Positions 7,133-38,973 of a DNA stretch of 64,000 nt are shown here, in pieces. A model generated the notes under the pieces. It made no database searches and had not been told where the DNA came from. It saw only the letters and a program-made list of their open reading frames with translations. Numbering within the stretch: the first letter of the stretch is position 1; each line of letters begins with the position of its first letter. Source of the stretch: an uncultured Nitrososphaerota archaeon (GTDB lineage: Archaea > Thermoproteota > EX4484-205 > JAAOZP01); the NCBI GenBank assembly GCA_964635675.1, contig CAZWPT010000003.1:3672-67671 (forward strand). Direction: 5' to 3'. The position numbers and the translations under genes were made by a program.

Positions 7133-8035
7133 TTAAAAGATTTGAAGCATGCTTAAGAGGATAATAATTGCTCCAAATGCTAGGCAGTAGTAGGAAAACT
7201 TGTGGAAGCTATGTTTAGCAACGTACTTCCTAACCGTCCCTAGGGCAAGGTAGCCGACGACAGCGGTTACCAGAATCCCTAGGCTAATCATCCAATACTC
7301 CTGCTCGAAACTAATTTCTTGAAGCTTAACTAGGCTTCCGCCTATTATGCTCGGGATTGATAAGAGCAGGGAAAACCGGTAGGCCTCTTCTTCCCCAACC
7401 CCTCTAAGTAGACCGGTTGAAACAGTCATCCCGGTTCTGGATATTCCAGGCGTGATTGAAGCAGCCTGAGAAACCCCTATCAGAAAGGAGTCTAAAGCAC
7501 CCAGTTTCCTACTTGGTTTAGCATTCCTCGTCGAATACAGTATTAAGCCGTTGAGAAGCATTGCAACACCGGTTGCGAAAAGGCTTTGAAACAAAGATTC
7601 GAAGAAGCTTTTAAGAAAGAAGCCCGCTAAGCCAATGGGAATTGTGCCGAGAGCAATGTACACGAGCATCCTGCCCTCTTCCCCTGAGAAATCTAGCTTT
7701 AACGCTGCTCTAAGGATTGATTGTAAATCCTTTCTTAGAAACAGTATTACCCCAATGAGGGTTCCTAGATGAAGCACTATGTCGAAAGCAACGGAGACTT
7801 TTATGTTAAACAGCTCCTGCACTATTACTAGGTGCCCAGTGCTTGAGACTGGAAACCATTCTGTTAAACCTTGAACGAGGCTTAGGCAAACCGTCTCCAG
7901 AATTCCCGCCAAGCCGGTTCTTCCCTGTTTGGAAAAATCGATGGTTAAAACTGCCTCGGCGAAGATAACTAGCGTTTGAATAAACAGGTAACTAGTGATA
8001 ATAAACGTTAGCAACTGACGTTTTCTCTTATCCAC
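7133..8035 (-). CDS. uppP: Undecaprenyl (polyprenyl)-diphosphatase UppP/BacA
   Basis: 300 aa polytopic protein. LTEWFPVSSTGHL and PGISRTG motifs are characteristic of the BacA/UppP family. Confidence 0.8.
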   Translation of the reverse strand: MDKRKRQLLTFIITSYLFIQTLVIFAEAVLTIDFSKQGRTGLAGILETVCLSLVQGLTEWFPVSSTGHLVIVQELFNIKVSVAFDIVLHLGTLIGVILFLRKDLQSILRAALKLDFSGEEGRMLVYIALGTIPIGLAGFFLKSFFESLFQSLFATGVAMLLNGLILYSTRNAKPSRKLGALDSFLIGVSQAASITPGISRTGMTVSTGLLRGVGEEEAYRFSLLLSIPSIIGGSLVKLQEISFEQEYWMISLGILVTAVVGYLALGTVRKYVAKHSFHKFSYYCLAFGAIIILLSMLQIF

Positions 8036-8092: not shown

Positions 8093-11000
8093 TTAAGATT
8101 TTTCAACAAACTTTCTTGCCGATATCTCATACATCTTTCCTTCAGCATCGAAAGTTATGATGTTTTTGTTCAGCCGTATTGCTGCTATTGCGAGCGCTGA
8201 GCTTAACAGGCCGTCGTCCGAGTCTAAACATACAGCGTCTATCGTGAGGATTTCTTCAGAAAGCCTTTCGACAAGCGTATTCACGTCTCTTGATTCAACC
8301 CTCCTAACCTCGATCGTCGGAGGCCAGATGCCTTCAGACCTAACTCTCCTCCGCAATTCCCTTACCTTGCCACTTACATCCGATCTTGAATAGATGATTA
8401 AAAATTGAGGCCGGTATTTTCTAACAACTGTTGCAGCATACTCTATTGATTCACCTATTACTACAGCCACGTTAAATCTTAGCGTAGACCATTCTAGGAC
8501 GAGCTTCCTAACATGAGTTATAACTTCATGCGCATTCGACTCAAGCATAACTGCGTAAAGGGATTTCGTATGAACGTAAGCCGCATACTCTTCGCCATCC
8601 TTCTTAACCTCGATCGCAGTTAGGGCTGTAAACGGCCTATTGCCCCCCTTTCCATACCTGAAACTCACCGAATAAGAGATATTCCCGTTCTCATCCAGTT
8701 TTTCCTCGCGCGCAACATCTGAAATTACTAGCTCTAATGCTGTACTGCTTTGAGGCAATCTTTCATAAAGATAGTTAACAAACGTTTCAACCTTCTCCGA
8801 AGGAATCCTCACCGGGATTCGAACCGTCCACACTCCTTCTTTAACTACTTTTTCTTCCATTCTCCACCTTCTCAAAAGCGAGGGGGTTGCTATTTTCGCA
8901 GCCTTTAAGGCAGGGATTGTTGAAGAAACCATGGCTGTCAGAAATGCCATCATTATCAGGGAAAGCATATCTATAGGAGTAGTTTTCACGTCTATAGGTA
9001 TGATCATATTAGAGACGTCAAACACTTTGAATATAATCATGCTCAATATATAGCCAATACCGCCGCCGATGAAACCGAATACCCCTGCCTCCACTATGAA
9101 CAGGCTTGAAATATGAGTAGGGTTTAAGCCTACAGATGAAAAAATGAATATTTCATTCCTCCTTTCATAAACTAGCGTGTAGAATAGCAGCATAATGTTT
9201 AACACGGTAATGATCATTGGAATAAGAACTGTCGCGCCAAAGACCTCGACAGAACCTCCTCTGAAGTAGTAGGTTATGCCCTCTGAACTAGGCATAGTTA
9301 TGACTGAATAGTTTGCTAGCAAAGCTAATCTTCTCGAAACCTCCCTTGCCTGCGCATTGTCTTTGAATGTGCAGTAGAGCGCGGAAACGTAGCCGCCTAA
9401 TCTTTGAGCGGTGAAAGCATCCGTTATCAAGAGGTTGTCAGCGGGCACAGGCTGGGGGCCATTTTCAAAGCCCGGAAGAATATACATGGGCAGGAAATGA
9501 CTGCCATCTGGCTCTTTTATCACGTTAACAAGCCCACCGTCAAATATGCCGGCTACCTTTAGCCTTACCCCTCTGAAAACTATGGTCATGCCTATGTCCA
9601 CGTCTGCTCTGGCTGCCAAATACCTGCTTATAAGAACAGTATTACTATTGTTGAACAGGCTTTCTATTGCATGCTCCGGGTATGTGGCGCTCTTAATCAA
9701 GCTTAGAGACGGGTCTCCCTCGGAAACCCCCCTGACCCCATAGATCGGTACCTCGCTAACATAGTCTAGGGCGCCGTACGCAACAGGAGTTATCACCTTA
9801 TAGTCTATTCTCGAAACCTCTCTCTGCGCGCCTATGAAACTAAAATCTTCAAGCGTGAGGGGGCCGGAAGGCTTGATCACCATCGACACTGGAGGCTTAT
9901 CGGCTGGCCACGTTTTTGCCACCATTATAGCGTTAGTCGTTAGAGACACCCTTATTGAAGTCAACGTTGATATTGCTATAATCATTATTGTAATTGAGAC
10001 GAGAGTTAGCGTAGTCCTTAGCTTTCTCTTTTTCAAGTTTCCAATAGAGTATGAAATAGCGATCAATAAGGCGGGTATCAATGAAACTCCTCGCTCGCTC
10101 TTTATTTCAAGAAAGTAGGGAGCTAAAAATACGAGTAGAAACATGATTATAACAATATAGATTCCTGTCTGAAGCTCTAAAGTTGTAATTCTTGAAAGAC
10201 CCGGGAACACCTGGTAAGCTATAGTCATTAAAACTATGAATGTAATCGCTGTAAACATCGCGTATTGATCCTTCCTCTCTGCAATTATCGAGCCGATGGA
10301 TAAGGATAGAATCGCCACGATCACGAATACTATAATCTGGTTGGTCCGTGTTTCCCTCACAATATTTTGAATAGCATTGATTATTAATACACTGCTCATC
10401 ACGGCTTCTTGCTGATACGCCAGTATCTTAATTGGGTCAGAGGTGTTTAAAACAGCTAAACTGGATCTTTCAATCTGCTCCAACCTGTAAAGCTCCAAGC
10501 CCACGTAGAGCCCAATGTTCCTGGTTTCTTCTACATGTCTTTCAGCAGATTCAACTGTTTCATTGACGAGAGTTTGGTAAGACTTTACTTGGAGGAAAGC
10601 AGGTTGATCCAGGTAGATTTTAGCATTTTTGCTTAATCTAATCGGCTGCGTACTATTCCCTATTTCCACTACTGTTCTTCTCCCACCGACAGTGATTGAA
10701 ACCAGTATCGACAAGTTTGTTTCAGAAGGAACTATAAGGGTATTTCCAGTTATGTTTAGCAGGCCAAGTAGCGGCAGATGGCTTGAATCATAATTCAGCA
10801 TTAATTGATTAAGCCGCGTCTCATTAAGTAGAAGGACATACATTTCCTGCGTTGGAATCGTCAGGTCAAAGGGAGAGGGAACAACAGCCAGGACTTTTGC
10901 GACCGCTCCTGGACATAGGTTTATTTCTATGTTCCTGGTTTCTCTGACTGACAGTTTTCCTAGGCTTATTATTTGAGGCACATAAGTATCTTTTTCGTTT

Positions 11001-13525
11001 AGCGAGGGACCTATGATCCTTATTTCTGAGCCGGAGGGCACTGCCATCGTTGTTTCATCCCAAACCCTGGTCACCATGTATGTCTCGTTCACGAACACTA
11101 GGAACAACTGGGGTTCCCTAGGCTTCGGGTTCAACGTTATTTTAAGCATTGACGACGGTTTTACGACGAAGCGTTTAGAATTAGTGTCGATCCTAGTGCC
11201 GTTTGCTAGGAGCAGCTCCGTTGAAACCTCCAGCACATGCTCGGAGTCAACATGGTGTGGCGCCTCGAAGACACGTTTTACGGCAAGATAGGCAGGTGAT
11301 GATGAAGATGGTATTTCAACGCTTATGTTCTCACTGACTAGAGTTTTATTGGAGGTTATATCGTTCAACCTCCAGCTTAGCACTGCGTCGAAAGGCTCCT
11401 GAAACACGTCGTTCACAAGCCAGAGCGCAATCCTAACTGTTGAGCCTGGAAGAAAGAATAGGGATGTCAGATTATGCCTATAGTCCCCGTCAACCATTAT
11501 TACGGTATGCACAGGGTTGAAAGCGTTCCTAACCTCGTAGTAAGACTCTTTCTTAAAGCCGTAAGAATCTATGATTGAGCCGCTGACGAGCAGGGGGTAG
11601 TCTGTAAGCGGAAGAACATTAACACCTATAGAAATATTGTACCTAAGTATTCTAACCCTATCTATCGCATGCCTCAAAACCAGAGATTGGTACTTCTGGC
11701 TTAGCTCAATTAAGCTGGAGAGGTTCTCAGCCGCATCCCTCCAGTAGGCGTTTTGGAAATCCGGGTCAAGCCCTTCCGCCTCGAGAAGCTGAAGAACCTG
11801 CTCATAAGGCAGGGTTTGAACCTCTTCCCAGAATGGAGAGTTTAAACTGGGCAAGCCCACTGGACTAATTACGTTTGGAAAAGATTCCTTGTAATGCAGG
11901 TAGTCAACCCAGCTGCCCGTTCCCCAACCGTAGTCTACGAACCTGTCAACATAATCGTATGCCTCAACGTATGATAGAACTATGATTCCCTTATTCACCT
12001 CTTTAACCAAGACGTTCAGATCACGGTCAAGGTAGAAATTGGTTCCAGAACCATAGTATGGTGACTCCTTGTTCAGCCACGGCGGGAGGGTGTGGGGGCA
12101 GACTATTGTTATCGAGGGATAGTTGTACGTTAGCAGTAACAGTTCAACGAGCTGCATCTTCACGAGCCTAGCATAGTTTTCAGAGTAGTCTAGGGCAGGG
12201 TAAGCGCCTATCAGGGGGAAGTCCAGCTGGACGATGAAGCCTTTCAAAGAGGTTAACTCATAGAACTCTTTCGGCTCAACATGCGCGAACGACCTTAAGA
12301 AATTGACATTGGCCCCTCTCAGCAGGCTGAGCGTCTCATTCATTTTGACGCTACGACTTGTGTCGATAAGCCATTCGAGCCTAGAGAAATACGACCCGCC
12401 CCTCAGAAAAACATTCCTACCGTTTACTTTAACGTAAGGATTCTTCTGGGAAATCGAACCCTCTAAGAAACGTATTCCAAATAATGTTTCAACCGACCCG
12501 GCGTACTCATCACCATGGTGCAGACTAATGTTGAGAAGGTAAACGTTTGGAACACCAATATCCCATGGGAACCAGTATGCTGGGTCCCGGAGGGAGATGC
12601 TTAACGTTTCCCACCTTCTTTCCCCAGCAGAAAGCTGTATGCTGAACGACTGTTCTAAGCCGGTTGTGTTATTGGAGCCAAGGTCTTTTATTCTTACGGA
12701 TGCTAGAAAGCTATCGTCAACACTCCCCTTGTTCTGAAGTAGAATACGCAGGTTTAAGGAGGCAGGGTTCGAGTACTGTGCTGCATCAACTAAGACCAGG
12801 TTAATAACGGGATCCAGCGTCCCGACGAGGGTGACGCCTCCAGATATCCCGATGTAACTGTCGTGGAGGTTTGGAAGAACTTCTGAGAAAGAGTATATGC
12901 CCATCGGGTGAACCCTAGATTCATACGTTTCCTGGACTGGAGACTCTAAGTATAGGGTCAGTAAGTTGACACTGTCGCGAACAACAATTCCATCTATGTC
13001 GAAGAAGAATTGGGAAAAATAACCCACGTGCTCCCCCAGATAGAAGCCGTTCAACCAGACTTTCGCAGCAACCCAGACTCCTGAGAAAACAAGCCTCAGC
13101 CTCTGCCCCCTCATTTCACTAGGCACTGTGAATGATGTTCTCACCCATAGCGAGCTGTTTGATCTAGTTGACTTAAAAAGGAAGGGTGCTTCAACCCTGC
13201 TCCAGGAAGAATCATCATAATAAGGATCATAGTAAAGATTAATGTTTCCAGGGTCAAAAGCGTCAACCTTGTAACTCCACTTCCCAGTCAATTCATGTTT
13301 AGAGAGATAGAAGTAGTCGAAAGGCGCCAAGTATGCAGAAGCCTTGTCAACCAAATTTTCAGAGGGCTCTACGAAGAAATATCGTAAACCAGGCAGAATC
13401 AGAGCCGCTATCAAAAACGATACTGAGACTATTGTTAGAAGCGGCTCTACGATTCTCCTCGACGCCATCACCGGATTGCTTCCAATTGAAGCACGATATA
13501 AGTTTTTACTTAATGTTTTAACCAT
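8093..13525 (-). CDS. Giant membrane protein fusing a GH2-like glycosidase ectodomain, an FtsX/MacB-type permease module and a C-terminal cytoplasmic domain
   Basis: 1810 aa in a single ORF. The N-terminal signal-anchor TM is followed by a GH2 sugar-binding jelly-roll (WSRVEAPFLF...RLVFSGVWVAAKVWLNGFYLGEHVGYF...DIDGIV). Next come an Ig-like domain and a TIM-barrel-like region (VKVNGRNVFLRGGSYF...). Further beta-rich domains are dense in N-x-S/T sequons. At aa 1064-1547 there are about 8 TMs with two FtsX signatures (LKKRKLRTTLTLVSITI; LLFYTLVYERRNEIFIFSSVGLNPTHISSLFIVEAGVFGFIGGG) and a MacB-PCD-like extracytoplasmic loop. A 263-aa cytoplasmic tail of unknown function follows. Confidence 0.7.
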   Translation of the reverse strand: MVKTLSKNLYRASIGSNPVMASRRIVEPLLTIVSVSFLIAALILPGLRYFFVEPSENLVDKASAYLAPFDYFYLSKHELTGKWSYKVDAFDPGNINLYYDPYYDDSSWSRVEAPFLFKSTRSNSSLWVRTSFTVPSEMRGQRLRLVFSGVWVAAKVWLNGFYLGEHVGYFSQFFFDIDGIVVRDSVNLLTLYLESPVQETYESRVHPMGIYSFSEVLPNLHDSYIGISGGVTLVGTLDPVINLVLVDAAQYSNPASLNLRILLQNKGSVDDSFLASVRIKDLGSNNTTGLEQSFSIQLSAGERRWETLSISLRDPAYWFPWDIGVPNVYLLNISLHHGDEYAGSVETLFGIRFLEGSISQKNPYVKVNGRNVFLRGGSYFSRLEWLIDTSRSVKMNETLSLLRGANVNFLRSFAHVEPKEFYELTSLKGFIVQLDFPLIGAYPALDYSENYARLVKMQLVELLLLTYNYPSITIVCPHTLPPWLNKESPYYGSGTNFYLDRDLNVLVKEVNKGIIVLSYVEAYDYVDRFVDYGWGTGSWVDYLHYKESFPNVISPVGLPSLNSPFWEEVQTLPYEQVLQLLEAEGLDPDFQNAYWRDAAENLSSLIELSQKYQSLVLRHAIDRVRILRYNISIGVNVLPLTDYPLLVSGSIIDSYGFKKESYYEVRNAFNPVHTVIMVDGDYRHNLTSLFFLPGSTVRIALWLVNDVFQEPFDAVLSWRLNDITSNKTLVSENISVEIPSSSSPAYLAVKRVFEAPHHVDSEHVLEVSTELLLANGTRIDTNSKRFVVKPSSMLKITLNPKPREPQLFLVFVNETYMVTRVWDETTMAVPSGSEIRIIGPSLNEKDTYVPQIISLGKLSVRETRNIEINLCPGAVAKVLAVVPSPFDLTIPTQEMYVLLLNETRLNQLMLNYDSSHLPLLGLLNITGNTLIVPSETNLSILVSITVGGRRTVVEIGNSTQPIRLSKNAKIYLDQPAFLQVKSYQTLVNETVESAERHVEETRNIGLYVGLELYRLEQIERSSLAVLNTSDPIKILAYQQEAVMSSVLIINAIQNIVRETRTNQIIVFVIVAILSLSIGSIIAERKDQYAMFTAITFIVLMTIAYQVFPGLSRITTLELQTGIYIVIIMFLLVFLAPYFLEIKSERGVSLIPALLIAISYSIGNLKKRKLRTTLTLVSITIMIIAISTLTSIRVSLTTNAIMVAKTWPADKPPVSMVIKPSGPLTLEDFSFIGAQREVSRIDYKVITPVAYGALDYVSEVPIYGVRGVSEGDPSLSLIKSATYPEHAIESLFNNSNTVLISRYLAARADVDIGMTIVFRGVRLKVAGIFDGGLVNVIKEPDGSHFLPMYILPGFENGPQPVPADNLLITDAFTAQRLGGYVSALYCTFKDNAQAREVSRRLALLANYSVITMPSSEGITYYFRGGSVEVFGATVLIPMIITVLNIMLLFYTLVYERRNEIFIFSSVGLNPTHISSLFIVEAGVFGFIGGGIGYILSMIIFKVFDVSNMIIPIDVKTTPIDMLSLIMMAFLTAMVSSTIPALKAAKIATPSLLRRWRMEEKVVKEGVWTVRIPVRIPSEKVETFVNYLYERLPQSSTALELVISDVAREEKLDENGNISYSVSFRYGKGGNRPFTALTAIEVKKDGEEYAAYVHTKSLYAVMLESNAHEVITHVRKLVLEWSTLRFNVAVVIGESIEYAATVVRKYRPQFLIIYSRSDVSGKVRELRRRVRSEGIWPPTIEVRRVESRDVNTLVERLSEEILTIDAVCLDSDDGLLSSALAIAAIRLNKNIITFDAEGKMYEISARKFVEKS

Positions 13526-13539
13526 GAGGCGAAGATAGA

Positions 13540-13549
13540 TTTATAAAAA
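13540..13549. promoter_or_regulatory. Archaeal TATA box (TTTATAAAAA) in the 49-bp divergent intergenic region
   Basis: AT-rich box 26 nt upstream of ATG 13575 (+ gene) and 15 nt from the minus-strand start at 13525. This suggests leaderless or very short-leader transcripts and a shared bidirectional control region. Confidence 0.5.
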
Positions 13550-13574
13550 GGCTGGGTTTCGAGATAGGTGAGAA

Positions 13575-15911
13575 ATGCCTGTGAAAGCACCCAGCCGGAT
13601 TATAGAAACATTTAAAAAACACTATTACATGCTATCTCTGCTTCTGCTCTTCCTATACGCATTGCTTTCTGTGAAGACAATTTTTCTAGAAGGCGTGATC
13701 CCGGGCTGGGACAATCCTGTGCACTACGTGAACTCCTATCTCACAGCGCTCCACATGTTTCCCAAGCTGGATATTCTAGGCTGGGACCCTTTCAACCAGT
13801 TCGGCTGGGTCTTCAACCTATACTACAACTCGGGCATGAGCATCTTCGTCGCGTCCATCCACAGCCTTTTCCTAGGGCGTATGGATCCTTTAATGGCTTA
13901 CAAGATTGCGTTTTTCCTAGCGTATTTCCTACTGGCCCCCGCCACATTCATGTTCGTCCACGCTTTAACAGAGGATAAAATCGCACCCGTAGTCGCCTCA
14001 CTGCTTTCAATAACAACCTTCACCGAAGAATCAGCATGGTTTGACGCTGGTTTAAAGCAAATGTACTACATAGGCATGTGGCCAGAGAGACTGGGCTTAG
14101 TCTTTCTGTTTTTCAGCATAGCCCTCTTGGCCTACTCCTTTAAATCTAAAGCGCTTTCAAAAACCCTGCTTTTCACTGGACTGGGCTCCCTGTTTTTCAC
14201 CATGGCTGTCCTAACCCATGTAATGATGGGGATTTCAGCGGCTTTAATGGCATTATTACTATGGCTATTTGTCTCCGCCAGAATATTGACCGACCTTTGT
14301 TCCGTTGACAAGCTTAAGCCGATCTTGAAAACCGAGGCCGTTGTCTTGGCGAAGTTTGCATCCATAGGCTTGCTTTCTATAGGGATGGCTGCTTTCTGGA
14401 TGGTCCCGTTGTTTCAAACAATAGACGCGTATCATAGTTTTCCAGCCGTCACATGGGCCACTGGACCATATATTTTTGGAGAAATATTTGCCAGTATACC
14501 GTGGTACTTGCTGGTTTTTTATTGTCTAGGCGCTTTCACGCCCGTTTACGCGAGAAAGAAAGTCTCCTATTCATCCTTAGCCGCCTCTGCAGTCATCCTT
14601 ATATTGCAGTTCCTTAACCTGGTTAACCTGTACGATGGCAACATCGGGCTGAGGCTTATTTTCGCATTCACGGCATCACTGGTTTTACTGGTTTCCTCCA
14701 AGGATCTCTATGTGCCGTTCCTGCTTGCATCCATATCCATCCTCGGTTTTCTGGCAACCGGCCCGGATACGTATCTTGTCTACTTCGGCCCGTTTAGGCT
14801 AGACCTACTTAGCCTAATACCTTTCGCAAGGAGCTTCGGCTACGCTAAGTTTAACGCTCCAGTCAGAATTCTAATACTCAGCTTAGCGGCCCTTGGTTTC
14901 TCGAAGATTTTGAGCAAGCTCTACGCGCTCTCCAAAACAACAAGGTTTCCAGCAGTTTTCTCAATAGTCTCCGGATTACTAGCGTTCTTGATTCTCAACT
15001 CTTCGCTTAGCGCTCAACTGCAGAACACTGATCTCGTCTACCCGTTTTCCAAGGAGAAGGTTTTCAAGCTAACCTCAGACTACCCCGGCTTCGAAAAGGT
15101 TGACGAGCTTATAGGCTGGGTGGAGAACAATGTTCCCAAAGACACTTACATACTGTTTCAGGATACTTTGGATTTCGGCGACAGCGAGGACTTTCAGACA
15201 TCGCACTATGTCTATATTGCTTCAATAAGGCTAAAAAGACCTATTATCGGCGGTTGTTTTGGGACCCGCTACATAACTAATACCTATGCCCTTACCGAGG
15301 GAGGGTATCTTCTAAGTTTCTCCGTTGAAAAGCTGATTAAGAACAATCTGATTCAGCGGCTGATGGATGAGCTTGGAATCGGCTACATCGCTATCCACGA
15401 TTCGAGACTAATAAATTTCTTAAACTCCTCCGCCGATTTTTGCCTTGAGTACTATAATGAGCTGTACGCAGTTTTTCGGAAAACTAATTTCTCAAAGATC
15501 GTTTTCATCCAGGGAGAGGGGACAGTTGAATCAGTAGATTTCACTATAAATAGAATTGAAGTCACGGTATCCAACGTGTCTGGAAATACTTCATATCTGA
15601 TAGTTAGGCAGGTGAACTTTCCAGGCTTCACCGCTGAGGCAGATGGGGAAATTATCCCGATAGACACGTACTATCCGAAGCTGCCAAACGTAATAACGGG
15701 TTGGCATGGAATCCAGCCAGTATTCAACTGGAGGATACCGTTCATTAGGGTGAAAATACCAGCCGGGTCTAATAGGGTAACGCTAAGGTTCAGTATGCAT
15801 ACTGTGGGAAGCGATGTATCAAAAATAGCCTGGGCAGTGTTTCTCTGTCTTTTGATCTCCGGCATAGCCCTGCCGATAGTGAGGAAGCTACGTGGAAAAT
15901 GGCGAAAGTAA
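13575..15911 (+). CDS. Polytopic membrane protein, putative GT-C-type glycosyltransferase (polyprenyl-phospho-sugar dependent)
   Basis: 778 aa. About 13 predicted TM helices in the N-terminal 480 aa with aromatic/Asp-containing extracytoplasmic loops (GWDNPVHY, GWDPFNQFGW). A roughly 300-aa C-terminal soluble domain ends in a TM anchor. The 3' end overlaps the UbiA-like gene by 13 nt. Confidence 0.45.
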   Translation: MPVKAPSRIIETFKKHYYMLSLLLLFLYALLSVKTIFLEGVIPGWDNPVHYVNSYLTALHMFPKLDILGWDPFNQFGWVFNLYYNSGMSIFVASIHSLFLGRMDPLMAYKIAFFLAYFLLAPATFMFVHALTEDKIAPVVASLLSITTFTEESAWFDAGLKQMYYIGMWPERLGLVFLFFSIALLAYSFKSKALSKTLLFTGLGSLFFTMAVLTHVMMGISAALMALLLWLFVSARILTDLCSVDKLKPILKTEAVVLAKFASIGLLSIGMAAFWMVPLFQTIDAYHSFPAVTWATGPYIFGEIFASIPWYLLVFYCLGAFTPVYARKKVSYSSLAASAVILILQFLNLVNLYDGNIGLRLIFAFTASLVLLVSSKDLYVPFLLASISILGFLATGPDTYLVYFGPFRLDLLSLIPFARSFGYAKFNAPVRILILSLAALGFSKILSKLYALSKTTRFPAVFSIVSGLLAFLILNSSLSAQLQNTDLVYPFSKEKVFKLTSDYPGFEKVDELIGWVENNVPKDTYILFQDTLDFGDSEDFQTSHYVYIASIRLKRPIIGGCFGTRYITNTYALTEGGYLLSFSVEKLIKNNLIQRLMDELGIGYIAIHDSRLINFLNSSADFCLEYYNELYAVFRKTNFSKIVFIQGEGTVESVDFTINRIEVTVSNVSGNTSYLIVRQVNFPGFTAEADGEIIPIDTYYPKLPNVITGWHGIQPVFNWRIPFIRVKIPAGSNRVTLRFSMHTVGSDVSKIAWAVFLCLLISGIALPIVRKLRGKWRK

Positions 15912-16759
15912 AGGATTTTTTAGTGGAAGCAAGGATTCTAGACTGGTATAAGAATCTACTTATACTGCTTGCACCATTCTTCGGCGGAAAGCTTCTACTC
16001 CCAGTCTATTATCCTAGCCTTTTATTGGGATTTCTAGCCCTGTCAGCGACCTCCAGTGCTTGCTACGTGATTAATGATATTAAAGATGCTGCTCAGGATG
16101 CTTATCATCCTAGGAAAAAAAATAGGCCTGTGGCTAGTGGGAAAATGAGTAGGGCTTCAGCGTTAATCTTCTCGATTATCCTACTGGGTTTTTCCCTCTT
16201 CGTCTCATACCGGGTGAGCATCCCCTTTCTAGTACTGTGCATCTCCTTATTCCTAAACTCGACCACTTACACTTTTTTCCTAAGGGATATAGCATGGTTA
16301 GACCTGCTTAGCATATCTCTTAATTACATCATTAGGTCGCTAGCAGGAGGCGAAATAGTTAATGTGTATATTTCACCATGGCTGTTGATTAGTGTCTTCT
16401 ATGTTTCAATGCTCTTTGCATTATCGAAAAGAAGGGAGGAATTAACCGCTTTAAATAAACCTGAACATCATAGAAAGTCTTTCAAGCATTATGACGTGGC
16501 TCTTATAGATCAAGCGATCACCGTCTTCTCAACCCTAATAATAATCTCTTATTCTCTCTATACTTTTCACTCGCCGTATGCAGATGGTCTCCTGCCTTTC
16601 ACGATTCCGATAATAACGCTAATAGTATTGCAGTTCATTTCGATTTCGAAAAAAACCGTGGAGGCTGGAATTATAAGAAGACTCCTGTCCAGCAGGATCA
16701 TATTTATAAGCCTCCTTATTTGGCTTGCAATAATGTTTTACTTAATATATTTAACATGA
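15899..16759 (+). CDS. UbiA-family prenyl-phosphate phosphoribosyltransferase-like (DPPR synthase-like)
   Basis: 286 aa, multi-TM. YVINDIKDAAQDAYHPRKKNRPVASG matches the NDxxDxxxDxxHPxKxxRPxAxG first Asp-rich motif of decaprenyl-phosphate 5-phosphoribosyltransferase (Rv3806c family). Confidence 0.7.
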   Translation: MAKVKDFLVEARILDWYKNLLILLAPFFGGKLLLPVYYPSLLLGFLALSATSSACYVINDIKDAAQDAYHPRKKNRPVASGKMSRASALIFSIILLGFSLFVSYRVSIPFLVLCISLFLNSTTYTFFLRDIAWLDLLSISLNYIIRSLAGGEIVNVYISPWLLISVFYVSMLFALSKRREELTALNKPEHHRKSFKHYDVALIDQAITVFSTLIIISYSLYTFHSPYADGLLPFTIPIITLIVLQFISISKKTVEAGIIRRLLSSRIIFISLLIWLAIMFYLIYLT

Positions 16760-22979: not shown

Positions 22980-24107
22980 ATGAACTCTTGGGAAAGAGTC
23001 GTAAAAGCTATGCAGCTTTCAGCACCCGATAGGGTTCCAATCTACGAGATGCACATCCCTCCTAAAATATCTTCAGTAATATTGAATAAGAACGTGAATG
23101 AAATCATGTATGCTAATGCCGAGGCCTTCTATAACCTGATAGTGTCAAAGGCAGAGATTAATCTAGATAAGTTGAATGCGCAAGTGGCGGAGGAACAGTT
23201 AACCCTTTACAAGAAGCTTGGGTTAGATTGGATAAGAGTTGGCGGAGCCTACACCGGCATTCCAAAGAATGTTAAAAAGCTTGAAGACAACGTGTGGCAG
23301 ATAAATGGCGGACGCTACAAATGGACAGGAGATACAGCTTGGTTTCTGGATGAGCCTAAAGAATACGATCCCGATGAGGTGATAAGGGCTTGCAAGAAGA
23401 GCAGTATAAGGGTGAACACCGGTGTTTTCGACGTGTTGAAGCGGATTTCCAAAAAAGTTAAGGGCGAGGTCTTTCTATCCTTTGACGCTGACGGAACTTG
23501 GGGGCCAATAGTTTCAAATCCAAATCTGCTTAAGCATGTTCTCGTCTGGGTGTATAGAAGACCTGATGCTGTTGAAGCTCTGATCAACTATCATACTGAA
23601 ATTGCAATAGAATACGGGAGGTATGCAATCGATGAGGGTGCTGATGCGATTCAGCTCTGCGTTGACTACGGTAATAAAAATGGTCCTTGGCTTTCTCCGC
23701 CGATGTTCAGAAGATTCGTGAAACCGGCCTTAGAGAGGCATGTGAATGAATTCAGAAGAAAAGGGGCTTTTGTAGTGGTTCATTCAGACGGTTATATCAT
23801 GCCGCTGCTGGGCGACATGGTGGATGCAGGGATTAATGCCTATCAGGGTATAGATGTAATAGCAGGCATGAACCTCAAGGAAGTCAAGGAGAAGTATGGG
23901 GATAGGATTTGCCTGGTTGGGAATGTCGACCCGAGGGTAATCGAGTACGGTACGAAGTCTGATGTGGAGAGAGAGGTTGAAAGGTGTCTCAGGGAGGGCG
24001 GAAAAGAGGGGTATATACTGTCAGCATCTGCCAACATTTCTATTAACACGAATGCTGAGAACTTCATGCATATGGTGGAGTATGCTAAGAAAATGTCGTA
24101 TGCTTAG
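22980..24107 (+). CDS. URO-D/MtaA-superfamily protein, paralog 1 (uroporphyrinogen decarboxylase-like / methyltransferase-like fold)
   Basis: 375 aa. N-terminal MNSWERVVKAMQLSAPDRVPIYE. Central ...AFVVVHSDGYIMP... and C-terminal GNVDPRVIEYG...GGKEGYILSASANI resemble the URO-D/MtaA family. About 65% identical to the 31485..32612 product. Confidence 0.65.
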   Translation: MNSWERVVKAMQLSAPDRVPIYEMHIPPKISSVILNKNVNEIMYANAEAFYNLIVSKAEINLDKLNAQVAEEQLTLYKKLGLDWIRVGGAYTGIPKNVKKLEDNVWQINGGRYKWTGDTAWFLDEPKEYDPDEVIRACKKSSIRVNTGVFDVLKRISKKVKGEVFLSFDADGTWGPIVSNPNLLKHVLVWVYRRPDAVEALINYHTEIAIEYGRYAIDEGADAIQLCVDYGNKNGPWLSPPMFRRFVKPALERHVNEFRRKGAFVVVHSDGYIMPLLGDMVDAGINAYQGIDVIAGMNLKEVKEKYGDRICLVGNVDPRVIEYGTKSDVEREVERCLREGGKEGYILSASANISINTNAENFMHMVEYAKKMSYA

Positions 24108-27983: not shown

Positions 27984-29138
27984 TTACTCCTTATAGAGGC
28001 CGATTTTCTTCAAAAGCTCGTAGGTGAAGTTAAGGTGTTCCACGGGAGTGTTCGGAGCCACATTGTTAGCGTCTCTGAAAACAAACTTTTTCCCTTTTGT
28101 AACTCCAGAGTCCAATACGGTTTTAACCTCCTCTTCAATCTTGCTTAAAGGACCCTGTTTAAGTGTTGTAACTCTAACACCACCCTGTATCACCACGTCT
28201 TCTCCAAGTATCTCTCTAGCCCTTCCCAAGTCTAGTGGAAACCCAGTGTCGATCGAGGAAATATTAAGCTCCTCCTTCAGGGTTTTCAGATGCTGTATAA
28301 CTGCTCCGCATAAGTGTATGCTTGGTCTTCCAGAGCAGAAAGTGTTAACTATCTTCTTATGAAGAGGGAGAACGAATTCTCTATAGGCTCTTGGAGACAG
28401 AAGCTGAATAGAGTCATCTGCAAACCCGAATCCTTCATACGGAAATGAAATCTTAAGCAATCTATGCCAAGCCTTCATTCTCTCAATTATGGATTCCGTC
28501 ATAAACCAGAGGAATTCCTCAGCTAAACTCCTGTTTAGATAGAGCATTTTAACCACGTAGCCGCCCGTAATGTTAGTCGCTATAGTGAAAGGCCCGTCTG
28601 TACCAATCGGTGCGGAGATGCTTCCAATAGGTCTTCCAAAGTAGGTGTAGCCTTCCTCCTTCTTCTTAAGGAAATATTCGTAGAAGCTTCTTACTCTTGC
28701 CATAAAGCCGGTGAAAGGCTCCGGTATGCCTTTTTTCATAAAGGTTCTCAAGTCATCAGCACTCTTCAGAAAAGGAATTATATCTGGAACACTATAGGCA
28801 GAGAAGTAGAGAGGTGCTCCGAACCATGCTGATTCATAAACGTTTTGAAACTGTACTGGAGTGGGCCATTCTCTGGGCAAACCCATTTCCCAGTCGGCAT
28901 AAACATTATGCCTCTTCCAGTATTCGAATTCGAGTTCAACCTGCAACATAGTTTCAGGATCGTTGAAAATCTTCTCATAAGTATAGTTCCTAATATTTAG
29001 CTCCTTGTTTAAAACAATCATTCTATCGTTCATTCCCCATATGACCGGGATTCTTTTATGCCTGTTTAGCTTGAAGTCTTTCCATAAGCGCAAAACCATT
29101 TCGTTGTGCTGCTCAAAACTATTGGTAGTATGCAGCAT
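27984..29138 (-). CDS. URO-D/MtaA-superfamily protein, paralog 2 (has an H-L-C-G motif)
   Basis: 384 aa. ...SGRPSIHLCGAV... sits at the position where paralogs 1, 3 and 5 have H-S-D-G. The H-x-C is reminiscent of the Zn-binding motif of MtaA-type methyltransferases. Lies immediately downstream of GH36 on the same strand. Confidence 0.6.
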   Translation of the reverse strand: MLHTTNSFEQHNEMVLRLWKDFKLNRHKRIPVIWGMNDRMIVLNKELNIRNYTYEKIFNDPETMLQVELEFEYWKRHNVYADWEMGLPREWPTPVQFQNVYESAWFGAPLYFSAYSVPDIIPFLKSADDLRTFMKKGIPEPFTGFMARVRSFYEYFLKKKEEGYTYFGRPIGSISAPIGTDGPFTIATNITGGYVVKMLYLNRSLAEEFLWFMTESIIERMKAWHRLLKISFPYEGFGFADDSIQLLSPRAYREFVLPLHKKIVNTFCSGRPSIHLCGAVIQHLKTLKEELNISSIDTGFPLDLGRAREILGEDVVIQGGVRVTTLKQGPLSKIEEEVKTVLDSGVTKGKKFVFRDANNVAPNTPVEHLNFTYELLKKIGLYKE

Positions 29139-29227: not shown

Positions 29228-31351
29228 CTATCTTACCAGCTTTAACCGGATCCTCTGCCCACAGCACCGGATTTTCAGTAAAGGCTCCTCCTGCACAGGC
29301 TCTCCTCCTTCAACCATTACTTTACCCTTAGACTTTGCAACGAGTATTCCAGGCTCTCTAAGCTTAAGAAACGCTTCGTCTTCATAAACAACCGCGTAAT
29401 CAATGCCCCGCGGCATAATATAGATGCCCTTCAATCCTATCAGTGTCAGCCAGTCGCTCCACGGTGCGAATATGAAGAGCTTCACACCCATGGGGTTAAG
29501 CTCAAAGCTGACAGATTTCTCCCACAACTCCTCGCTGAAGTATTCGAAAACTGCATACCTCTCATCCGGAAGCATTGCGTCGAAGGGGGTTACACTTCCT
29601 TTAACCGGTATGTCGTCCTTTGTGATGTTGAAAGCAGCTACCACACCGTATACTCCCACATCGCTCAAGCTAACCTTGGTGAAAACTTTAAGCGGTACTG
29701 CTTCATTGTAAGGATCGCGCATCAGTATATCTTTAGTGGGCAGTGCAGGCCCATCGGGCAACGGAAGGAAACCGTCGGTGAATGCAAGGGGTTTCACTAG
29801 TTCCGCTACGCTTTTTCCAGCTTCATCAGTAAGGTATATTGGACCGCCACTCACAGCTCTTGCTACCGCCTGCTGCAGAGCCCAAGGATCGTGACTCTGA
29901 AACATATCCCAGTCGGGCCATACGATCTGAGACATGAAAAGCGCATTGTATGCGTTAAAATAGAGGTGTAATTTGTTTCTGGATTTTTTATGAGGTACGA
30001 TGTAGTCCACACAATTTCTAGCTATCGTTGACCTAAACCAGCTGAATGCATTCTCTGGTTGCTGAGCCATACAGTTAAGAACCTCCAGTGAATTGATGTA
30101 AGCCGCTGCTTCCAGCCCCTTGTGGAGCATCTCGGCCGCCTCTCCAACAGGTATTTTAGCGGAATACGTATGGCCGACGGAAGACTGGTTATCAACCTTC
30201 ACGAAGTCGAAGCCCCATTCTCTGAGCTTAGAGTACCAGTCCCTGAAAAGATCGAATGAATCAGCGGGTTTTGGTACTAGGTTTCCCTCCACCTCCATCA
30301 AATGTTTTCCCCATCTCTCTGCTAGCTGGCTTCCCTTAGCGATTCCTCTCCAATGTATGTTAAGCGTGTGCCAAAGCCCAACGTATCTCGCCCCCATGCT
30401 CTTCAGTTTGCCAACGACATCCTCAAAACCTCCTGGAAACTTTCTCACACTGGGCTCCAAACCCTTCATACTCATATCCTCCTCGTCTTGCCACCCATCG
30501 TCAATCAAGGCAAAACCGGGTTTGATACCCTTCTCTAATAAGGACTTGAACGTAACCACTATTTTCTCCTCCGTAGGGTCACGCCAGCAAGCATTCCAAG
30601 AACACCAGCCAAGGTACTTGAAGATCTCTGGTAACGCCTTATTCTTCCTAAGTACGTCATGCTTTCCTGTAAGCGTGAAAGCGGACTCGTATGCAGATTC
30701 CACTGCTCTATAGGGGTTGCTCGAGGTCGCAAACGCGAAAAGAGGCACCCGACTCCAAGCTCCTGCTACCATCCTGTTCAGCAGGATGCTGAACTCACCC
30801 TGTTCGAACCGTGAGACGTAACCACGAGCACCCGAGTTCGAAATTGGAAGCAAGAACGCATAACTTCCTGCACCTTCGGCAATGAGTTGAGAAACCTTGA
30901 TATTCCTCGGCAAGCCTTTAAAGCCTGAAGCATGGATTGGGTAGCTCCATGCGCAATACTCGAACTCCTCCGCCTCTCTTAGCTGTGGATACTGATATGG
31001 TTCCTGTGATTCACCAAAGTATTTGTCAGGATCGTAAGTGAAGTGGAACAGGAGAAGACTTTTAAAACCTTCAAAGCTTGACCTTAGCTCAACTAGAAGA
31101 CCATTATCGCTCAGTCCATCGGCCTCAGCTGTCACAACGATGGCCTCCGGCCCCCATTCTTCGAATACCAGTTTACTCTTTCCCTCAGGGTATTTGACGT
31201 GCGCAGTACTGGCATGCAGCTCTACGGAAAGAGGATTCGAAAGCTCACCGGCGAGAGCCATCAGTGGCCTAAAGATAAGTCTAAAGCCCTCCTTTTCCAT
31301 AAGGATCTCCGAATCTCTAACCCTAAAGGATGCTGGACCCATGGAAAACAC
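29228..31351 (-). CDS. GH36-family alpha-galactosidase (raffinose-synthase-like clade)
   Basis: 707 aa. ALIDDGWQDEE (DDGW motif) and FDFVKVDNQ (K-x-D nucleophile motif) are characteristic of GH36/GalS-like enzymes. Confidence 0.7.
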   Translation of the reverse strand: MFSMGPASFRVRDSEILMEKEGFRLIFRPLMALAGELSNPLSVELHASTAHVKYPEGKSKLVFEEWGPEAIVVTAEADGLSDNGLLVELRSSFEGFKSLLLFHFTYDPDKYFGESQEPYQYPQLREAEEFEYCAWSYPIHASGFKGLPRNIKVSQLIAEGAGSYAFLLPISNSGARGYVSRFEQGEFSILLNRMVAGAWSRVPLFAFATSSNPYRAVESAYESAFTLTGKHDVLRKNKALPEIFKYLGWCSWNACWRDPTEEKIVVTFKSLLEKGIKPGFALIDDGWQDEEDMSMKGLEPSVRKFPGGFEDVVGKLKSMGARYVGLWHTLNIHWRGIAKGSQLAERWGKHLMEVEGNLVPKPADSFDLFRDWYSKLREWGFDFVKVDNQSSVGHTYSAKIPVGEAAEMLHKGLEAAAYINSLEVLNCMAQQPENAFSWFRSTIARNCVDYIVPHKKSRNKLHLYFNAYNALFMSQIVWPDWDMFQSHDPWALQQAVARAVSGGPIYLTDEAGKSVAELVKPLAFTDGFLPLPDGPALPTKDILMRDPYNEAVPLKVFTKVSLSDVGVYGVVAAFNITKDDIPVKGSVTPFDAMLPDERYAVFEYFSEELWEKSVSFELNPMGVKLFIFAPWSDWLTLIGLKGIYIMPRGIDYAVVYEDEAFLKLREPGILVAKSKGKVMVEGGEPVQEEPLLKIRCCGQRIRLKLVR

Positions 31352-31484: not shown

Positions 31485-32612
31485 ATGAACTCTTGGGAAA
31501 GGGTAGTAACGGCTATGCAGATTTCAATACCGGATAGGGTTCCGATTTATGAGTTGCACCCCTCCTTGAAAATATTTTCCACCGTGCTTGGTAAAAATGA
31601 CGACAGTATCATGGCTCATAACCCTGAAGCGTTTTTCAACCTAATAGCTTCTAAGGGAAATATTGATCTAAACAAGGTTAACGAACAAATTGCGGAAGAA
31701 CTTCTAAACCTTTATGGAAAACTCGGGCTAGATTGGATTCGCGTTGTAAAAGCTTATGTCAGCATCCCGAGGGAATTGAAGAGGATTGGCGAGCATACGT
31801 GGCAGGTAGACGGGAAAATATACAAGTGGTCGGGAGAAACCCTTTGGAACATGAGCGAGCGTAGGACCTATGACCCGGATGAGGTGATAAGAGAGTGTAG
31901 GAATAGTGATGTTGAAATAGATCCGTTAGCGTTTGAAGTGCTTAGGAAACTAGCAGCCAAGGTGAAGAAAGACATGTTCCTGTCTTTTGACGCTGACGGA
32001 ACATGGGAGCCCATAGTGTCTAATCCAAATCTCCTCAAACACGTCCTACTATGGGTTTACAGGAGGCCTGATGCTGTAGAGGCCTTAATCAACCATAATA
32101 CTGACGTTGCCATCGAGTACGGCAAGTGGGCTATAGATGAAGGTGCTGACGCAATTCAACTCTGCGTTGACTATGGGAACCAGAACGGTCCTTGGATGTC
32201 AATCGAAATGTTCAGGAAATTTGTTAAACCAGCTTTGAGAAGAGAAGTGGATGCTTTCAAGAGAAAAGGCGCATTTGTAGTTCTTCACTCCGACGGGTAT
32301 ATCATGCCCATTCTCCCCGATATTGTTGACACGGAGGTAGATGCTTACCAGTGCATCGACGTGATCGCCGGTATGAAGATGTGGGAGGTTAAGGAAAAAT
32401 TCGGAGACAAAATTTGCCTAGTTGGGAATGTGGATCCTAGGATAATAGAATACGGGACTAAAAATGACGTAGAGAAAGAGGTTGAGAGATGCTTAAGAGA
32501 AGGGGGGAGAGAAGGCTACATTCTTTCGGCTTCAGCAAGCTGTGCGCTTAACAATAACGCAGAGAATTACATTTATATGATAAACTACGTTAAGAGAAAA
32601 ACATTACAGTAA
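31485..32612 (+). CDS. URO-D/MtaA-superfamily protein, paralog 3 (close duplicate of paralog 1)
   Basis: 375 aa. MNSWERVVTAMQISIPDRVPIYE...AFVVLHSDGYIMP...GNVDPRIIEYG...GGREGYILSASASC. The DNA is also clearly similar to 22980..24107 (identical first 17 nt). Confidence 0.65.
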   Translation: MNSWERVVTAMQISIPDRVPIYELHPSLKIFSTVLGKNDDSIMAHNPEAFFNLIASKGNIDLNKVNEQIAEELLNLYGKLGLDWIRVVKAYVSIPRELKRIGEHTWQVDGKIYKWSGETLWNMSERRTYDPDEVIRECRNSDVEIDPLAFEVLRKLAAKVKKDMFLSFDADGTWEPIVSNPNLLKHVLLWVYRRPDAVEALINHNTDVAIEYGKWAIDEGADAIQLCVDYGNQNGPWMSIEMFRKFVKPALRREVDAFKRKGAFVVLHSDGYIMPILPDIVDTEVDAYQCIDVIAGMKMWEVKEKFGDKICLVGNVDPRIIEYGTKNDVEKEVERCLREGGREGYILSASASCALNNNAENYIYMINYVKRKTLQ

Positions 32613-37866: not shown

Positions 37867-38973
37867 TCATTTTTTCGCAGCAAGTTCATCAAGCAGTTGT
37901 GAAACCATTCTTACCCTCTCGATATCTGCAGGAGGGGGAAGCTCATCCGATATGCCAAGTATGAGCCGTGGAATAGCCTTCACTATTTTTCTTACCAGTT
38001 GCTCCAAAGTTTCGAAAGGCACGTTCGGAAGGAAAAGTAGGAAGGGTATGCCGTCTAAGACGACGATCTCATCCTTAAACTCTCCTGCAATATCTTCGAC
38101 TGTCATGTCTCCAACGGGCTCAGGGGTTAAGGCTTCAACCCCATCAACCCCAGACCTCCAGAGTAATGGGAGAAGAGGCTTCGCATAGCCGTCAACATGT
38201 ATATGCACGTACTTGCCTCTTTTATGCAAGTATTCGCACCTCTTCTGATAGATCGGCAGACAGAATTTCTCGAACAGCCTTGGAGAAGTTAACCTAACAT
38301 CAATGTTTTCCCCCAAGTTAAATATTTCAATCGGAGAATTGCCCATCAGCTCAAAGAACTTATCATTATATCTTTCAATAGCATCCATAATCTCCTCAAG
38401 CCTATTATACCCTTCAATGTATAGGAACCTCATTGTCCGAGTGAAACCCATGTAGTCCAGTATTAGAGCCTGAAGAGGCGAGTGTGGAAAGAAGAAGGAA
38501 ACTATTCCTTGCTCCTTTACGTTCCTCTCCAACTCCTCGTAAACCCCCTGGTTGAACCTGACTTCAGCACTGTCCAGCAGGTAGGATAAAGCCTTAAAAT
38601 CCTCAGCGGTTTTCAAAAGATACTCTAGTTTTCTCGAGGACAGGCCCCATTCGTCAGTCTTAGCTACTTCCTGAAGCGAGCCGACGGGCGTTTTAATCCT
38701 TGTCCTAACCATGTTTCCGTTTCTCGTAACATTAAACTGAACGTCATCCCCGTATGATACTTCCACAGCGCTTTTCACGAAGTATCCCGAGTAACACCTC
38801 CAGCTTGCTCCAAGATCTATGCAAACATCTGCGAGACTAACTCCCTCGTATTTTTTAGGAAGCTTTCCACTCTTCTTCGCCACGTAATACCAGTATTCAT
38901 GCCTTATATTCCAAGGGACCTTGTCTACCTGTCTTCCCTGGAAGACCGCTAGGATTCTTTCATGAGCGTTCAA
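37867..38973 (-). CDS. URO-D/MtaA-superfamily protein, paralog 4
   Basis: 368 aa. N-terminal MNAHERILAVFQGRQVDKVPW aligns with paralogs 1 and 3. The central motif is VHIHVDGYAKP. The called start codon is TTG (caa on + strand at 38971-38973). Confidence 0.6.
   Translation of the reverse strand: MNAHERILAVFQGRQVDKVPWNIRHEYWYYVAKKSGKLPKKYEGVSLADVCIDLGASWRCYSGYFVKSAVEVSYGDDVQFNVTRNGNMVRTRIKTPVGSLQEVAKTDEWGLSSRKLEYLLKTAEDFKALSYLLDSAEVRFNQGVYEELERNVKEQGIVSFFFPHSPLQALILDYMGFTRTMRFLYIEGYNRLEEIMDAIERYNDKFFELMGNSPIEIFNLGENIDVRLTSPRLFEKFCLPIYQKRCEYLHKRGKYVHIHVDGYAKPLLPLLWRSGVDGVEALTPEPVGDMTVEDIAGEFKDEIVVLDGIPFLLFLPNVPFETLEQLVRKIVKAIPRLILGISDELPPPADIERVRMVSQLLDELAAKK

Follow-up and report, generated by a model that had tools for sequence, protein, structure and literature searches.

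Can one archaeal gene carry both a glycosidase-like ectodomain and an FtsX/MacB-type permease, and what would its product do with no ATP-binding cassette (ABC) ATPase encoded beside it? This question is raised by an open reading frame (ORF) of 1810 codons in a stretch of 64,000 nucleotides from an uncultured Nitrososphaerota archaeon (assembly GCA_964635675.1, contig CAZWPT010000003.1). This whole stretch is referred to as the window, and we refer to the encoded protein as the giant. An earlier note on this DNA had described the giant as a single-ORF fusion of a complete GH2-like ectodomain to a permease module and had considered a surface glycosidase. We found that the fusion is genuine, that the GH2 core has lost both catalytic glutamates, and that the cytoplasmic tail contains two folded domains, the second of which is CARF-like. 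We tentatively interpret the giant as part of a machine that acts on the glycans of the cell envelope.

Integrity and distribution of the fusion

A search of 5.8 billion proteins revealed 27 near-full-length or partial homologues, with identities descending from 98% to 32%, in NCBI, JGI, ENA and Logan assemblies labelled Brockarchaeota or Thermoproteota. A scan of the GTDB species genomes revealed 21 giant loci, all in archaeal metagenome-assembled genomes (MAGs), which belonged to Brockarchaeota (some mislabelled Thaumarchaeota or Nitrososphaerota) and to Thermofilaceae/Thermofilales. The same fusion is therefore found in related archaea, where more than 25 full-length homologues with identities between about 30% and 98% retain it. 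An assembly error or frameshift that merged two genes is ruled out as its origin; the full-length ORF recurs on many independent contigs from all four sources down to about 30% identity, and the composition is even over its length, so that we regard the chance of an artefact as negligible.

The homologues are 1790-1791 aa long and begin approximately 19 residues later than the annotated ATG, which indicates that M20 (nt 13466-13468) is probably the true start. The gap between the giant and the divergent gene (window 13466-13574) includes a TATA-box-like element, TTTATAAAAA. In one MAG, JAWCMB01, three loci (L017, L019 and L021) had parallel synteny with 63-87% identity, reflecting either a paralogous duplication of the whole module or a mixed-population bin.

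A beta-mannosidase fold without catalytic glutamates

The N-terminal part of the giant showed the complete fold of a GH2 enzyme. Three Pfam families matched above their gathering scores, namely Glyco_hydro_2_N2 (PF22666; aa 121-202, E = 4e-9) and Glyco_hydro_2_N (PF02837; aa 122-181, E = 4e-7) for the sugar-binding jelly roll and Glyco_hydro_2 (PF00703; aa 253-352, E = 9e-6) for the Ig domain, and NCBIfam also matched this part to GH2 enzymes. The TIM-barrel part of the window protein had no Pfam match, PF02836 included. The (beta/alpha)8 catalytic domain was recognized through alignments to the solved beta-mannosidases 5n6u and 2je8, which cover approximately aa 126-673, and PF02836 was matched in the homologues P0027 and P0074.

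In contrast to the fold, the active site is not preserved. Upon alignment of 22 sequences, the GH2 motifs were intact only in P0027, the most distant of them, which has WAVHNEPPW at the acid/base and FPTEFGAQS at the nucleophile; the window protein and the 20 others have CPHTLPPW and FPNVISPVG at these positions. The P0027 motifs match those of Xanthomonas Man2A (6byc) residue for residue, HPSLVLWCGNNE at the acid/base and FMSEYG at the nucleophile, and they also align to the deposited Man2A variant 6byi, which has Ala at the acid/base position. In addition, 5n6u aligns to P0027 at the nucleophile motif (FISEFG). Because P0027 anchors the alignment to known enzymes, the replacements in the window protein can be assigned to Thr479-Leu480, in place of the acid/base Asn-Glu, and to Val552, in place of the nucleophile Glu. 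The previous description of a complete GH2-like ectodomain thus holds for the fold but not for the catalytic residues, and a surface glycosidase does not fit the window protein. In a wider set, both glutamates were kept in P0027, P0069, P0070, P0072, P0074 and the Thermofilales loci L029-L031, and both were lost in the Brockarchaeota clade and in P0066.

The ratio of nonsynonymous to synonymous substitution rates (dN/dS) of the dead core was 0.14-0.21 between the window protein and four orthologues, and the other domains showed 0.04-0.13. Since the core is still under purifying selection despite the loss of its catalytic residues, it appears to have retained a binding or scaffolding role, and the most likely function of the ectodomain is to bind or hold glycan, not to cleave it.

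We also observed a different elaboration of the GH2 region in a paralogue, P0024 (approximately 2090 aa; L004 6366-12647), which contains a GH43-like beta-propeller insert of about 300 aa at aa ~560-860; its GH43 Pfam match (E = 1e-5) is under the gathering score, and P0025 and P0069 are of similar length. The window also encodes a 654-aa ORF without a Pfam match (47715-49679, minus strand), which is 86% identical to an L004 gene at 833-2722. This identity indicates a close relationship between the window archaeon and the L004 organism, in which the divergent paralogue P0024 is found.

The membrane module is of the MacB/FtsX type

The C-terminal membrane part resembled the permeases of type VII ABC systems. 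Pfam placed a single FtsX domain (PF02687) at aa 1434-1545 (E = 6e-16), covering transmembrane (TM) helices TM2-TM4, and MacB_PCD at aa 1172-1400 (E = 9e-5; 23.3 bits, below the cut-off of 27), and NCBIfam matched this part to LolC/E, MacB and FtsX models. The AlphaFold2 (AF2) model of aa 1022-1810 had a predicted local distance difference test (pLDDT) score of 79.5 overall and of about 90 in the periplasmic core. Foldseek matched the model of the core to LolE/LolC, MacB, Spr0694-0695, HrtB, YtrF and FtsX chains (E = 2e-10 to 1e-3). Hydropathy, the AF2 model and the Foldseek matches agreed on four TM helices with a large extracytoplasmic core between TM1 and TM2. The dN/dS of this core was 0.09-0.11 against the four orthologues. 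TM2 and TM3 are joined by a cytoplasmic coupling helix, modelled at aa 1456-1464, with the motif YERRNEIF, in which E1454, R1455, E1458 and I1459 (ER..EI) are invariant in archaeal and bacterial giants.

The earlier note had counted about eight TM helices with two FtsX signatures and a MacB-core-like loop. The MacB-like core was found, but only one FtsX domain is recognized by Pfam; a second one in the three additional TM helices (TMa-c) that precede the module was rejected for want of Pfam support.

Distal ectodomain and topology

Hydropathy and the AF2 model gave one N-terminal TM helix, three extra TM helices (aa 1064-1139), an amphipathic helix bearing a KKRKLRT patch and the four MacB-type TM helices. 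In this layout, the anchor is followed by an ectodomain that extends to approximately aa 1060 and ends in a stalk, and the cytoplasmic tail starts at aa 1548, so that the GH2-like part lies outside the cell, as had been proposed. The region comprising the stalk and the extra TM helices is common to the M28-FtsX giants described below.

Between the GH2 core and the stalk, Pfam recognized a Mannosidase_ig domain (PF17786) at about aa 700-784 (E = 5e-4). The sequon density previously pointed out in this beta-rich region was borne out: aa 600-1060 contain 13 N-x-S/T sequons compared with 4.6 +/- 1.9 expected, approximately a three-fold enrichment that 0 of 2000 shuffles reached, and many of them are conserved among homologues. 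The same shuffle test revealed no enrichment in the GH2 core (aa 48-600). The enriched and conserved sequons mark aa 600-1060 as extracellular. The dN/dS of the distal ectodomain was 0.11-0.14, so that the constraint on the ectodomain is comparable to that on the periplasmic core.

The cytoplasmic tail contains D1 and a CARF-like D2

No family match was found for the 263-aa tail at the sequence level by Pfam, NCBIfam or a PDB profile search, and no CARF sequence match was present. The view that it has no recognisable motif is therefore right for sequence motifs, but it misses two folds. The AF2 model of aa 1541-1810, built from 16 sequences, had a pLDDT of 84.3 and revealed two domains, D1 and D2. 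D1 is common to the bacterial and archaeal M28-FtsX giants and is a hallmark of a wider giant FtsX family; its dN/dS was 0.035-0.05.

The fold of D2 matched Csa3, VC1899, Can2, Csm6, Crn1, Card1, Cad1 and Cam1 by two methods and in two independent models, with Cam1 among the top Foldseek matches. CARF domains have been defined by a six-stranded Rossmann-like core in which strands 5 and 6 form a hairpin (PMC4012209), and D2 has this arrangement. It also has a polar S/T residue at the end of strand 1 (IGES, aa 1690-1693), where Ser occurs in at least 90% of the aligned sequences. The signature [DN]x[ST]xxx[RK] after strand 4 is absent; the D2 loop reads D-S-D-D-G-L-L, with no K/R. In D2 proteins of approximately 1100 aa this loop is of an [ST]GG type, again with no K/R. 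The basic residue is likewise missing from two CARF families, RtcR and Rv2818 (PMC4012209). As no sequence-level match was found, we refer to D2 as CARF-like and not as a proven CARF member. Its fold predicts that it binds a small, probably nucleotide-like, ligand.

A D2 profile matched 50 of 1.84 billion representative proteins, always at the extreme C-terminus. All eight of the longer matches scanned had an FtsX domain; they comprised GH2 giants (1715 and 1777 aa), a class of 1050-1150 aa with small ectodomains, and one protein of 535 aa. Matches of 1799-2091 aa fell outside this FtsX scan, and several of them show GH2 catalytic-region motifs. None of the D2 matches scanned was attached to a nuclease, a helix-turn-helix domain or another classical CARF effector, and no cas or cyclase genes were found in the annotated window or related loci. 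The homologues P0022 and P0023 stop after D1.

Table 1. Parts of the giant and neighboring genes, with nucleotide positions in the window.
Feature	Position	Strand	Basis or remark
Giant GH2-FtsX ORF, 1810 aa	8093..13525	-	ATG start
N-terminal signal-anchor TM helix, aa 29-47, after basic cytoplasmic stub	13385..13441	-	Kyte-Doolittle scan
GH2 beta-mannosidase-like core, aa 60-673 (sugar-binding jelly roll, Ig domain, TIM barrel)	11507..13348	-	Pfam, NCBIfam, PDB alignments
Thr479-Leu480, at GH2 acid/base Asn-Glu position	12086..12091	-	Alignments including Xanthomonas Man2A wild type and mutant
Val552, at GH2 nucleophile Glu position	11870..11872	-	Same alignments
Beta-rich, sequon-rich distal ectodomain, aa 674-1020, with Mannosidase_ig-like domain	10466..11506	-	Pfam, sequon enrichment
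Helical stalk and extra TM helices TMa (1064-1082), TMb (1089-1107), TMc (1121-1139)	10106..10465	-	Hydropathy, AF2 model
MacB/FtsX-type module, aa 1146-1547: amphipathic helix, TM1, periplasmic core, TM2-4	8885..10090	-	Pfam, AF2, Foldseek
MacB-like periplasmic core domain, aa 1190-1429	9239..9958	-	MacB_PCD match, AF2 pLDDT
TM2-TM3 cytoplasmic coupling-helix motif YERRNEIFIFSSVGLNP, aa 1453-1469	9119..9169	-	Conservation
Cytoplasmic D1, aa 1548-1682, alpha+beta fold (KA1/BamC-N/TBP-like)	8480..8884	-	AF2 model, fold matches
Cytoplasmic D2, aa 1683-1810, CARF-like six-stranded Rossmann fold	8096..8479	-	
Near-invariant loop D1768-S-D-D-G1772, directly after D2 strand 4, at CARF-signature position	8210..8224	-	Alignments
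UppP/BacA polyprenyl-diphosphate phosphatase	7133..8035	-	Immediately downstream of giant
778-aa polytopic membrane protein, ~12 TM, 260-aa ecto domain, C-terminal TM	13575..15911	+	Divergent to giant
UbiA-family prenyl/phosphoribosyl transferase, closest to decaprenyl-phosphate phosphoribosyltransferase	15899..16759	+	Overlaps stop of 778-aa gene
Two GH38 alpha-mannosidases; soluble GH2; raffinose-synthase/GH36-like	39018-42080; 50601-53531; 55991-58768; 29228-31351	-; +; +; -	

Neighboring genes and the conserved 778-aa partner

The gene for the 778-aa protein accompanies the giant in nearly all Brockarchaeota loci for which the upstream flank is available. It also lies beside the giant in the Thermofilaceae loci L029 and L030, where it is 35-37% identical and the giant ectodomain is about 30% identical. 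It is the sole partner conserved from Brockarchaeota to Thermofilaceae, and its family is confined to these two groups. The layout of the 778-aa protein is GT-C-like, and three residues in the first outside loop (D46, H50 and D71) are invariant, but its identity as a GT-C enzyme is unproven. The protein had no Pfam, NCBIfam or PDB sequence match, and its family showed weak matches to DUF6541 (2 of 16 members, E = 0.005) and PTPS_related (1 of 16, E = 0.09).

The first 13 nt of the UbiA gene lie within the end of the 778-aa gene, stop codon included, an arrangement that suggests coupled translation of the two. It matched decaprenyl-phosphate phosphoribosyltransferase (DPPR synthase) models with E = 9e-51, below the curated cut-off, compared with E = 1e-11 or worse for other UbiA types. 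In mycobacteria, such phosphoribosyltransferases make the polyprenyl-phospho-pentose donors of GT-C arabinosyltransferases, and the phosphoribosyltransferase gene Rv3806c adjoins aftB, which we take as a lead only. In every Brockarchaeota locus that has the 778-aa gene, the UbiA gene comes after it; in Thermofilaceae it does not. Downstream, UppP is linked to the giant throughout Brockarchaeota, and the series of UppP/BacA, DHH/DHHA1, sugar-1-phosphate nucleotidyltransferase, TrmB and GT4 genes is syntenic over much of this group; the series is absent at the P0027 and Thermofilales loci. Taken together, the linkage of the 778-aa gene across both groups, the overlapping DPPR-synthase-like UbiA gene and the linked UppP strengthen the envelope-glycan context that had been suggested from the neighbors of the giant.

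Elsewhere in the window, the ordinary soluble GH2 enzyme matched PDB 7sf2 (E = 2e-49). We also observed five paralogues of URO-D (uroporphyrinogen decarboxylase/methyltransferase-like) within 20 kb (22980-24107, 27984-29138, 31485-32612, 37867-38973 and 42150-43235); URO-D genes flank the giants in L002 and L004 too.

No linked ATPase in the archaeal loci examined, a dedicated ATPase in bacterial relatives

The absence of an ABC ATPase gene from the window, noted before, was borne out and extended to about 30 archaeal loci. None of the reading frames of the window contains an ABC signature, and tblastn searches there for MacB-type ATPases and small FtsX proteins gave no match. No gene for either was present within approximately 10 kb in roughly 30 archaeal giant loci from two lineages, so that in these flanks the giant has no cognate ATPase fused to it or encoded alongside. 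The ABC genes that do occur near archaeal loci belong to Znu, Opp or PhoU-type importers; ZnuC (L028), an Opp-type protein (L002) and a TOBE-type importer ATPase (L113) were considered as motors and rejected, as they are not of the MacB type.

In bacteria, relatives of the membrane part occur in a different setting. An operon found in Desulfotalea, Syntrophobacteraceae and many sediment metagenomes encodes a small FtsX (218 aa), an ABC ATPase of the MacB/LolD/FtsE type, an M28+FtsX giant (~1600 aa), DUF6785 and an OPT-like protein (~650 aa). We counted these genes in 80 metagenome loci (bacterial alignment A6), using as denominators the loci with a sufficiently long flank. The ATPase lay beside the giant in 48 of 49 assessable loci, the small FtsX in 47 of 49, DUF6785 in 56 of 57 and the OPT-like gene in 42 of 42, and D2 was found in 0 of 80. 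The operon was observed at loci L005, L006 and L032-L111, and at least 440 stretches in JGI metagenomes matched. It is strictly conserved and apparently undescribed, and in the literature library searched no paper mentions DUF6785.

Three archaeal loci, L004 (13896-22492), L008 (716-14914) and L009 (2212-15520), contain an M28 giant, DUF6785 and the OPT-like gene without the ATPase and small FtsX, and in each the cluster adjoins a D2-bearing FtsX protein, either a GH2 giant or a 1102-aa form. From this arrangement, the D2-bearing protein may stand in for both the ATPase and the small FtsX, which is suggestive rather than proven; conservation of the coupling helix points the other way. The cluster is not present in this window and was found in only three of the D2-bearing loci examined.

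Functional interpretation

How could these parts work together? Our leading interpretation, to which we give slightly less than an even chance, is a glycan-envelope machine in which a dead mannosidase-derived ectodomain is mounted on a MacB-type mechanotransmission module with a D1-D2 tail and is served by a probably polyprenyl-phosphate-sugar-dependent partner. The giant would be an archaeal membrane-embedded relative of the type VII (MacB/LolCE/FtsX) ABC mechanotransmitters, probably a dimer. Outside the cell, its heavily N-glycosylated, five-domain ectodomain would hold or bind glycan, and the stalk, the three extra TM helices and the 4-TM/periplasmic-core module would join this ectodomain to D1-D2, where D2 could act as a small-molecule sensor that controls the giant from the cytoplasm. 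As in FtsEX-EnvC, a conformational change would be transmitted through the membrane, and the D1-D2 tail, an unlinked ATPase or the two together would drive or gate it. The giant would work with the 778-aa protein and, in Brockarchaeota, also with the DPPR-synthase-like UbiA and UppP, and from the conserved gene linkage we infer a polyprenyl-phosphate-sugar-dependent pathway of cell-envelope glycan assembly or remodelling.

Several observations weigh against this interpretation. The GT-C identity of the 778-aa partner is unproven and its DUF6541 and PTPS_related matches are weak, and the linkage of UppP and UbiA is confined to Brockarchaeota. D2 has an acidic DSDDG loop in place of the CARF basic residue and no sequence-level CARF match, and it is absent from P0022 and P0023 although the synteny is the same. 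The coupling-helix motif is fully conserved, which fits an ATPase that is still present and encoded elsewhere. Finally, the rest of the window is rich in sugar-catabolic genes, which would also fit nutrient acquisition.

The source of energy separates two further proposals. In a bolder form of the glycan-envelope machine, which we consider unlikely, D1 and the CARF-like D2 would supplant the ABC motor and the small FtsX altogether, and a cytoplasmic small-molecule ligand on a D2 dimer, instead of ATP hydrolysis, would switch the conformation of a surface pseudo-glycosidase that controls envelope glycan assembly; this form may act as a heterodimer with the M28-FtsX giant that lies beside D2 proteins at L004, L008 and L009. 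Conversely, the giant may belong to an ordinary type VII ABC system whose MacB/FtsE-type ATPase is encoded elsewhere, with D1-D2 as accessory regulatory or docking domains. The invariant coupling-helix motif, the dedicated ATPase of the D1-bearing bacterial homologues and the lack of D2 in P0022/P0023 all speak for such a system; we nevertheless give it only a small chance, considering that about 30 archaeal loci lack a MacB-type ATPase or small FtsX gene nearby, where the bacterial linkage is almost complete, and that the nearby ABC genes are those of importers.

A role in nutrient acquisition is a third proposal, in which surface-tethered glycan capture (by an active exo-glycosidase in Thermofilales) would feed oligosaccharides to importers and the FtsX part would be mainly an anchor or scaffold. 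Relatives with intact catalytic residues exist, and the window holds two GH38 genes, a GH36-like gene, a soluble GH2 gene and genes for kinases, isomerases and TrmB regulators. At the P0022 locus, an Opp/Dpp-type ABC importer and a binding protein are encoded directly upstream, and the sister M28-FtsX giants always adjoin OPT-like and DUF6785 membrane proteins. However, a plain anchor needs no conserved periplasmic core, coupling helix, D1 (dN/dS 0.04) or D2, the partner shared across phyla is the 778-aa polytopic protein and not an importer, and UppP and the DPPR-synthase-like UbiA are biosynthetic rather than catabolic; we therefore find this role doubtful. An antiviral effector, in which D2 would be a true CARF sensor of cyclic oligoadenylates (type III CRISPR/CBASS-like) and the membrane part would kill or arrest the infected cell as Cam1 and Cap1 do, appears very improbable. 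Membrane CARF effectors are already known and the D2 fold matches include one of them, Cam1, but the window and the annotated related loci contain no cas, cyclase or defence genes, the stable synteny resembles that of housekeeping genes, D2 lacks the CARF basic residue, and a glycosylated ectodomain of 1000 aa under purifying selection would be left unexplained.

Comparison with known systems and significance

EnvC is a catalytically dead hydrolase homologue governed by FtsEX, a type VII ABC mechanotransmission system. By this likeness to the dead ectodomain, FtsEX-EnvC appears to be the closest functional analogy to the giant. In FtsEX-EnvC/PcsB/RipC/CwlO, as is proposed for the giant, a hydrolase-like protein outside the cell is controlled by a 4-TM module of the FtsX/MacB type that has an extracytoplasmic domain, and FtsX structures are among the fold matches of the giant. 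In contrast to FtsEX, the hydrolase-like part of the giant is fused in cis and is related to GH2 beta-mannosidases rather than to peptidoglycan hydrolases; the giant also has three extra TM helices, an N-terminal anchor and the D1 and CARF-like D2 tail, its host is archaeal, and no FtsE-type ATPase is linked to it. The permeases of MacB, LolCDE, HrtBA and YtrEF were the best fold matches of aa 1146-1547 (Foldseek E = 2e-10 to 1e-4) and share the FtsX Pfam domain, the periplasmic core domain between TM1 and TM2 and the ER..EI motif. The giant differs from them in that it has no linked nucleotide-binding domain and has an ectodomain before the module, and its D1-D2 tail has no counterpart.

Compared with the GH2 beta-mannosidases BtMan2A (2je8), DtMan (5n6u) and Xanthomonas Man2A (6byc), the ectodomain has the same order of jelly roll, Ig, TIM barrel and mannosidase Ig domains, but has Leu480 and Val552 for the catalytic Glu residues, is tethered to the membrane at both ends and is enriched in sequons in its distal part. 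The bacterial M28+FtsX giants are true homologues of the stalk, the three TM helices, the MacB module and D1 (window aa 1022-1577, about 22-25% identity); in contrast, their ectodomain is M28-peptidase-like, they have no D2, an ATPase and a second, small FtsX nearly always accompany them, and their other neighbors differ. Cam1, Cap1, Chp1 and the CARF-TM protein of Panoptes also have a cytoplasmic CARF-fold domain on a membrane module, whereas in the giant D2 forms the C-terminal end of an FtsX protein that has eight TM helices, a 1000-aa ectodomain and no CRISPR/CBASS context, its strand-4 loop is acidic (DSDDG) without K/R, and no sequence-level similarity to these effectors was found. No paper in the literature library searched combines CARF with FtsX, and the combination of a dead mannosidase, a MacB/FtsX module and a CARF-like domain has not been previously described.

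MacB/FtsX-type modules are a model for mechanical work across the membrane without substrate transport, and to our knowledge every studied example uses an ABC ATPase. The present work also draws attention to a bacterial operon, large, strictly conserved and apparently undescribed, that comprises small FtsX, ATPase, M28-FtsX giant, DUF6785 and OPT-like genes. In the archaeal giants, the predicted active ectodomains of Thermofilales and the inactive ectodomains of Brockarchaeota constitute a natural experiment in pseudoenzyme evolution, and the CARF fold would have been recruited outside nucleic-acid defence. With this family, the mechanotransmission model would come to include a new input of energy or regulation and the poorly understood biology of archaeal envelope glycans.

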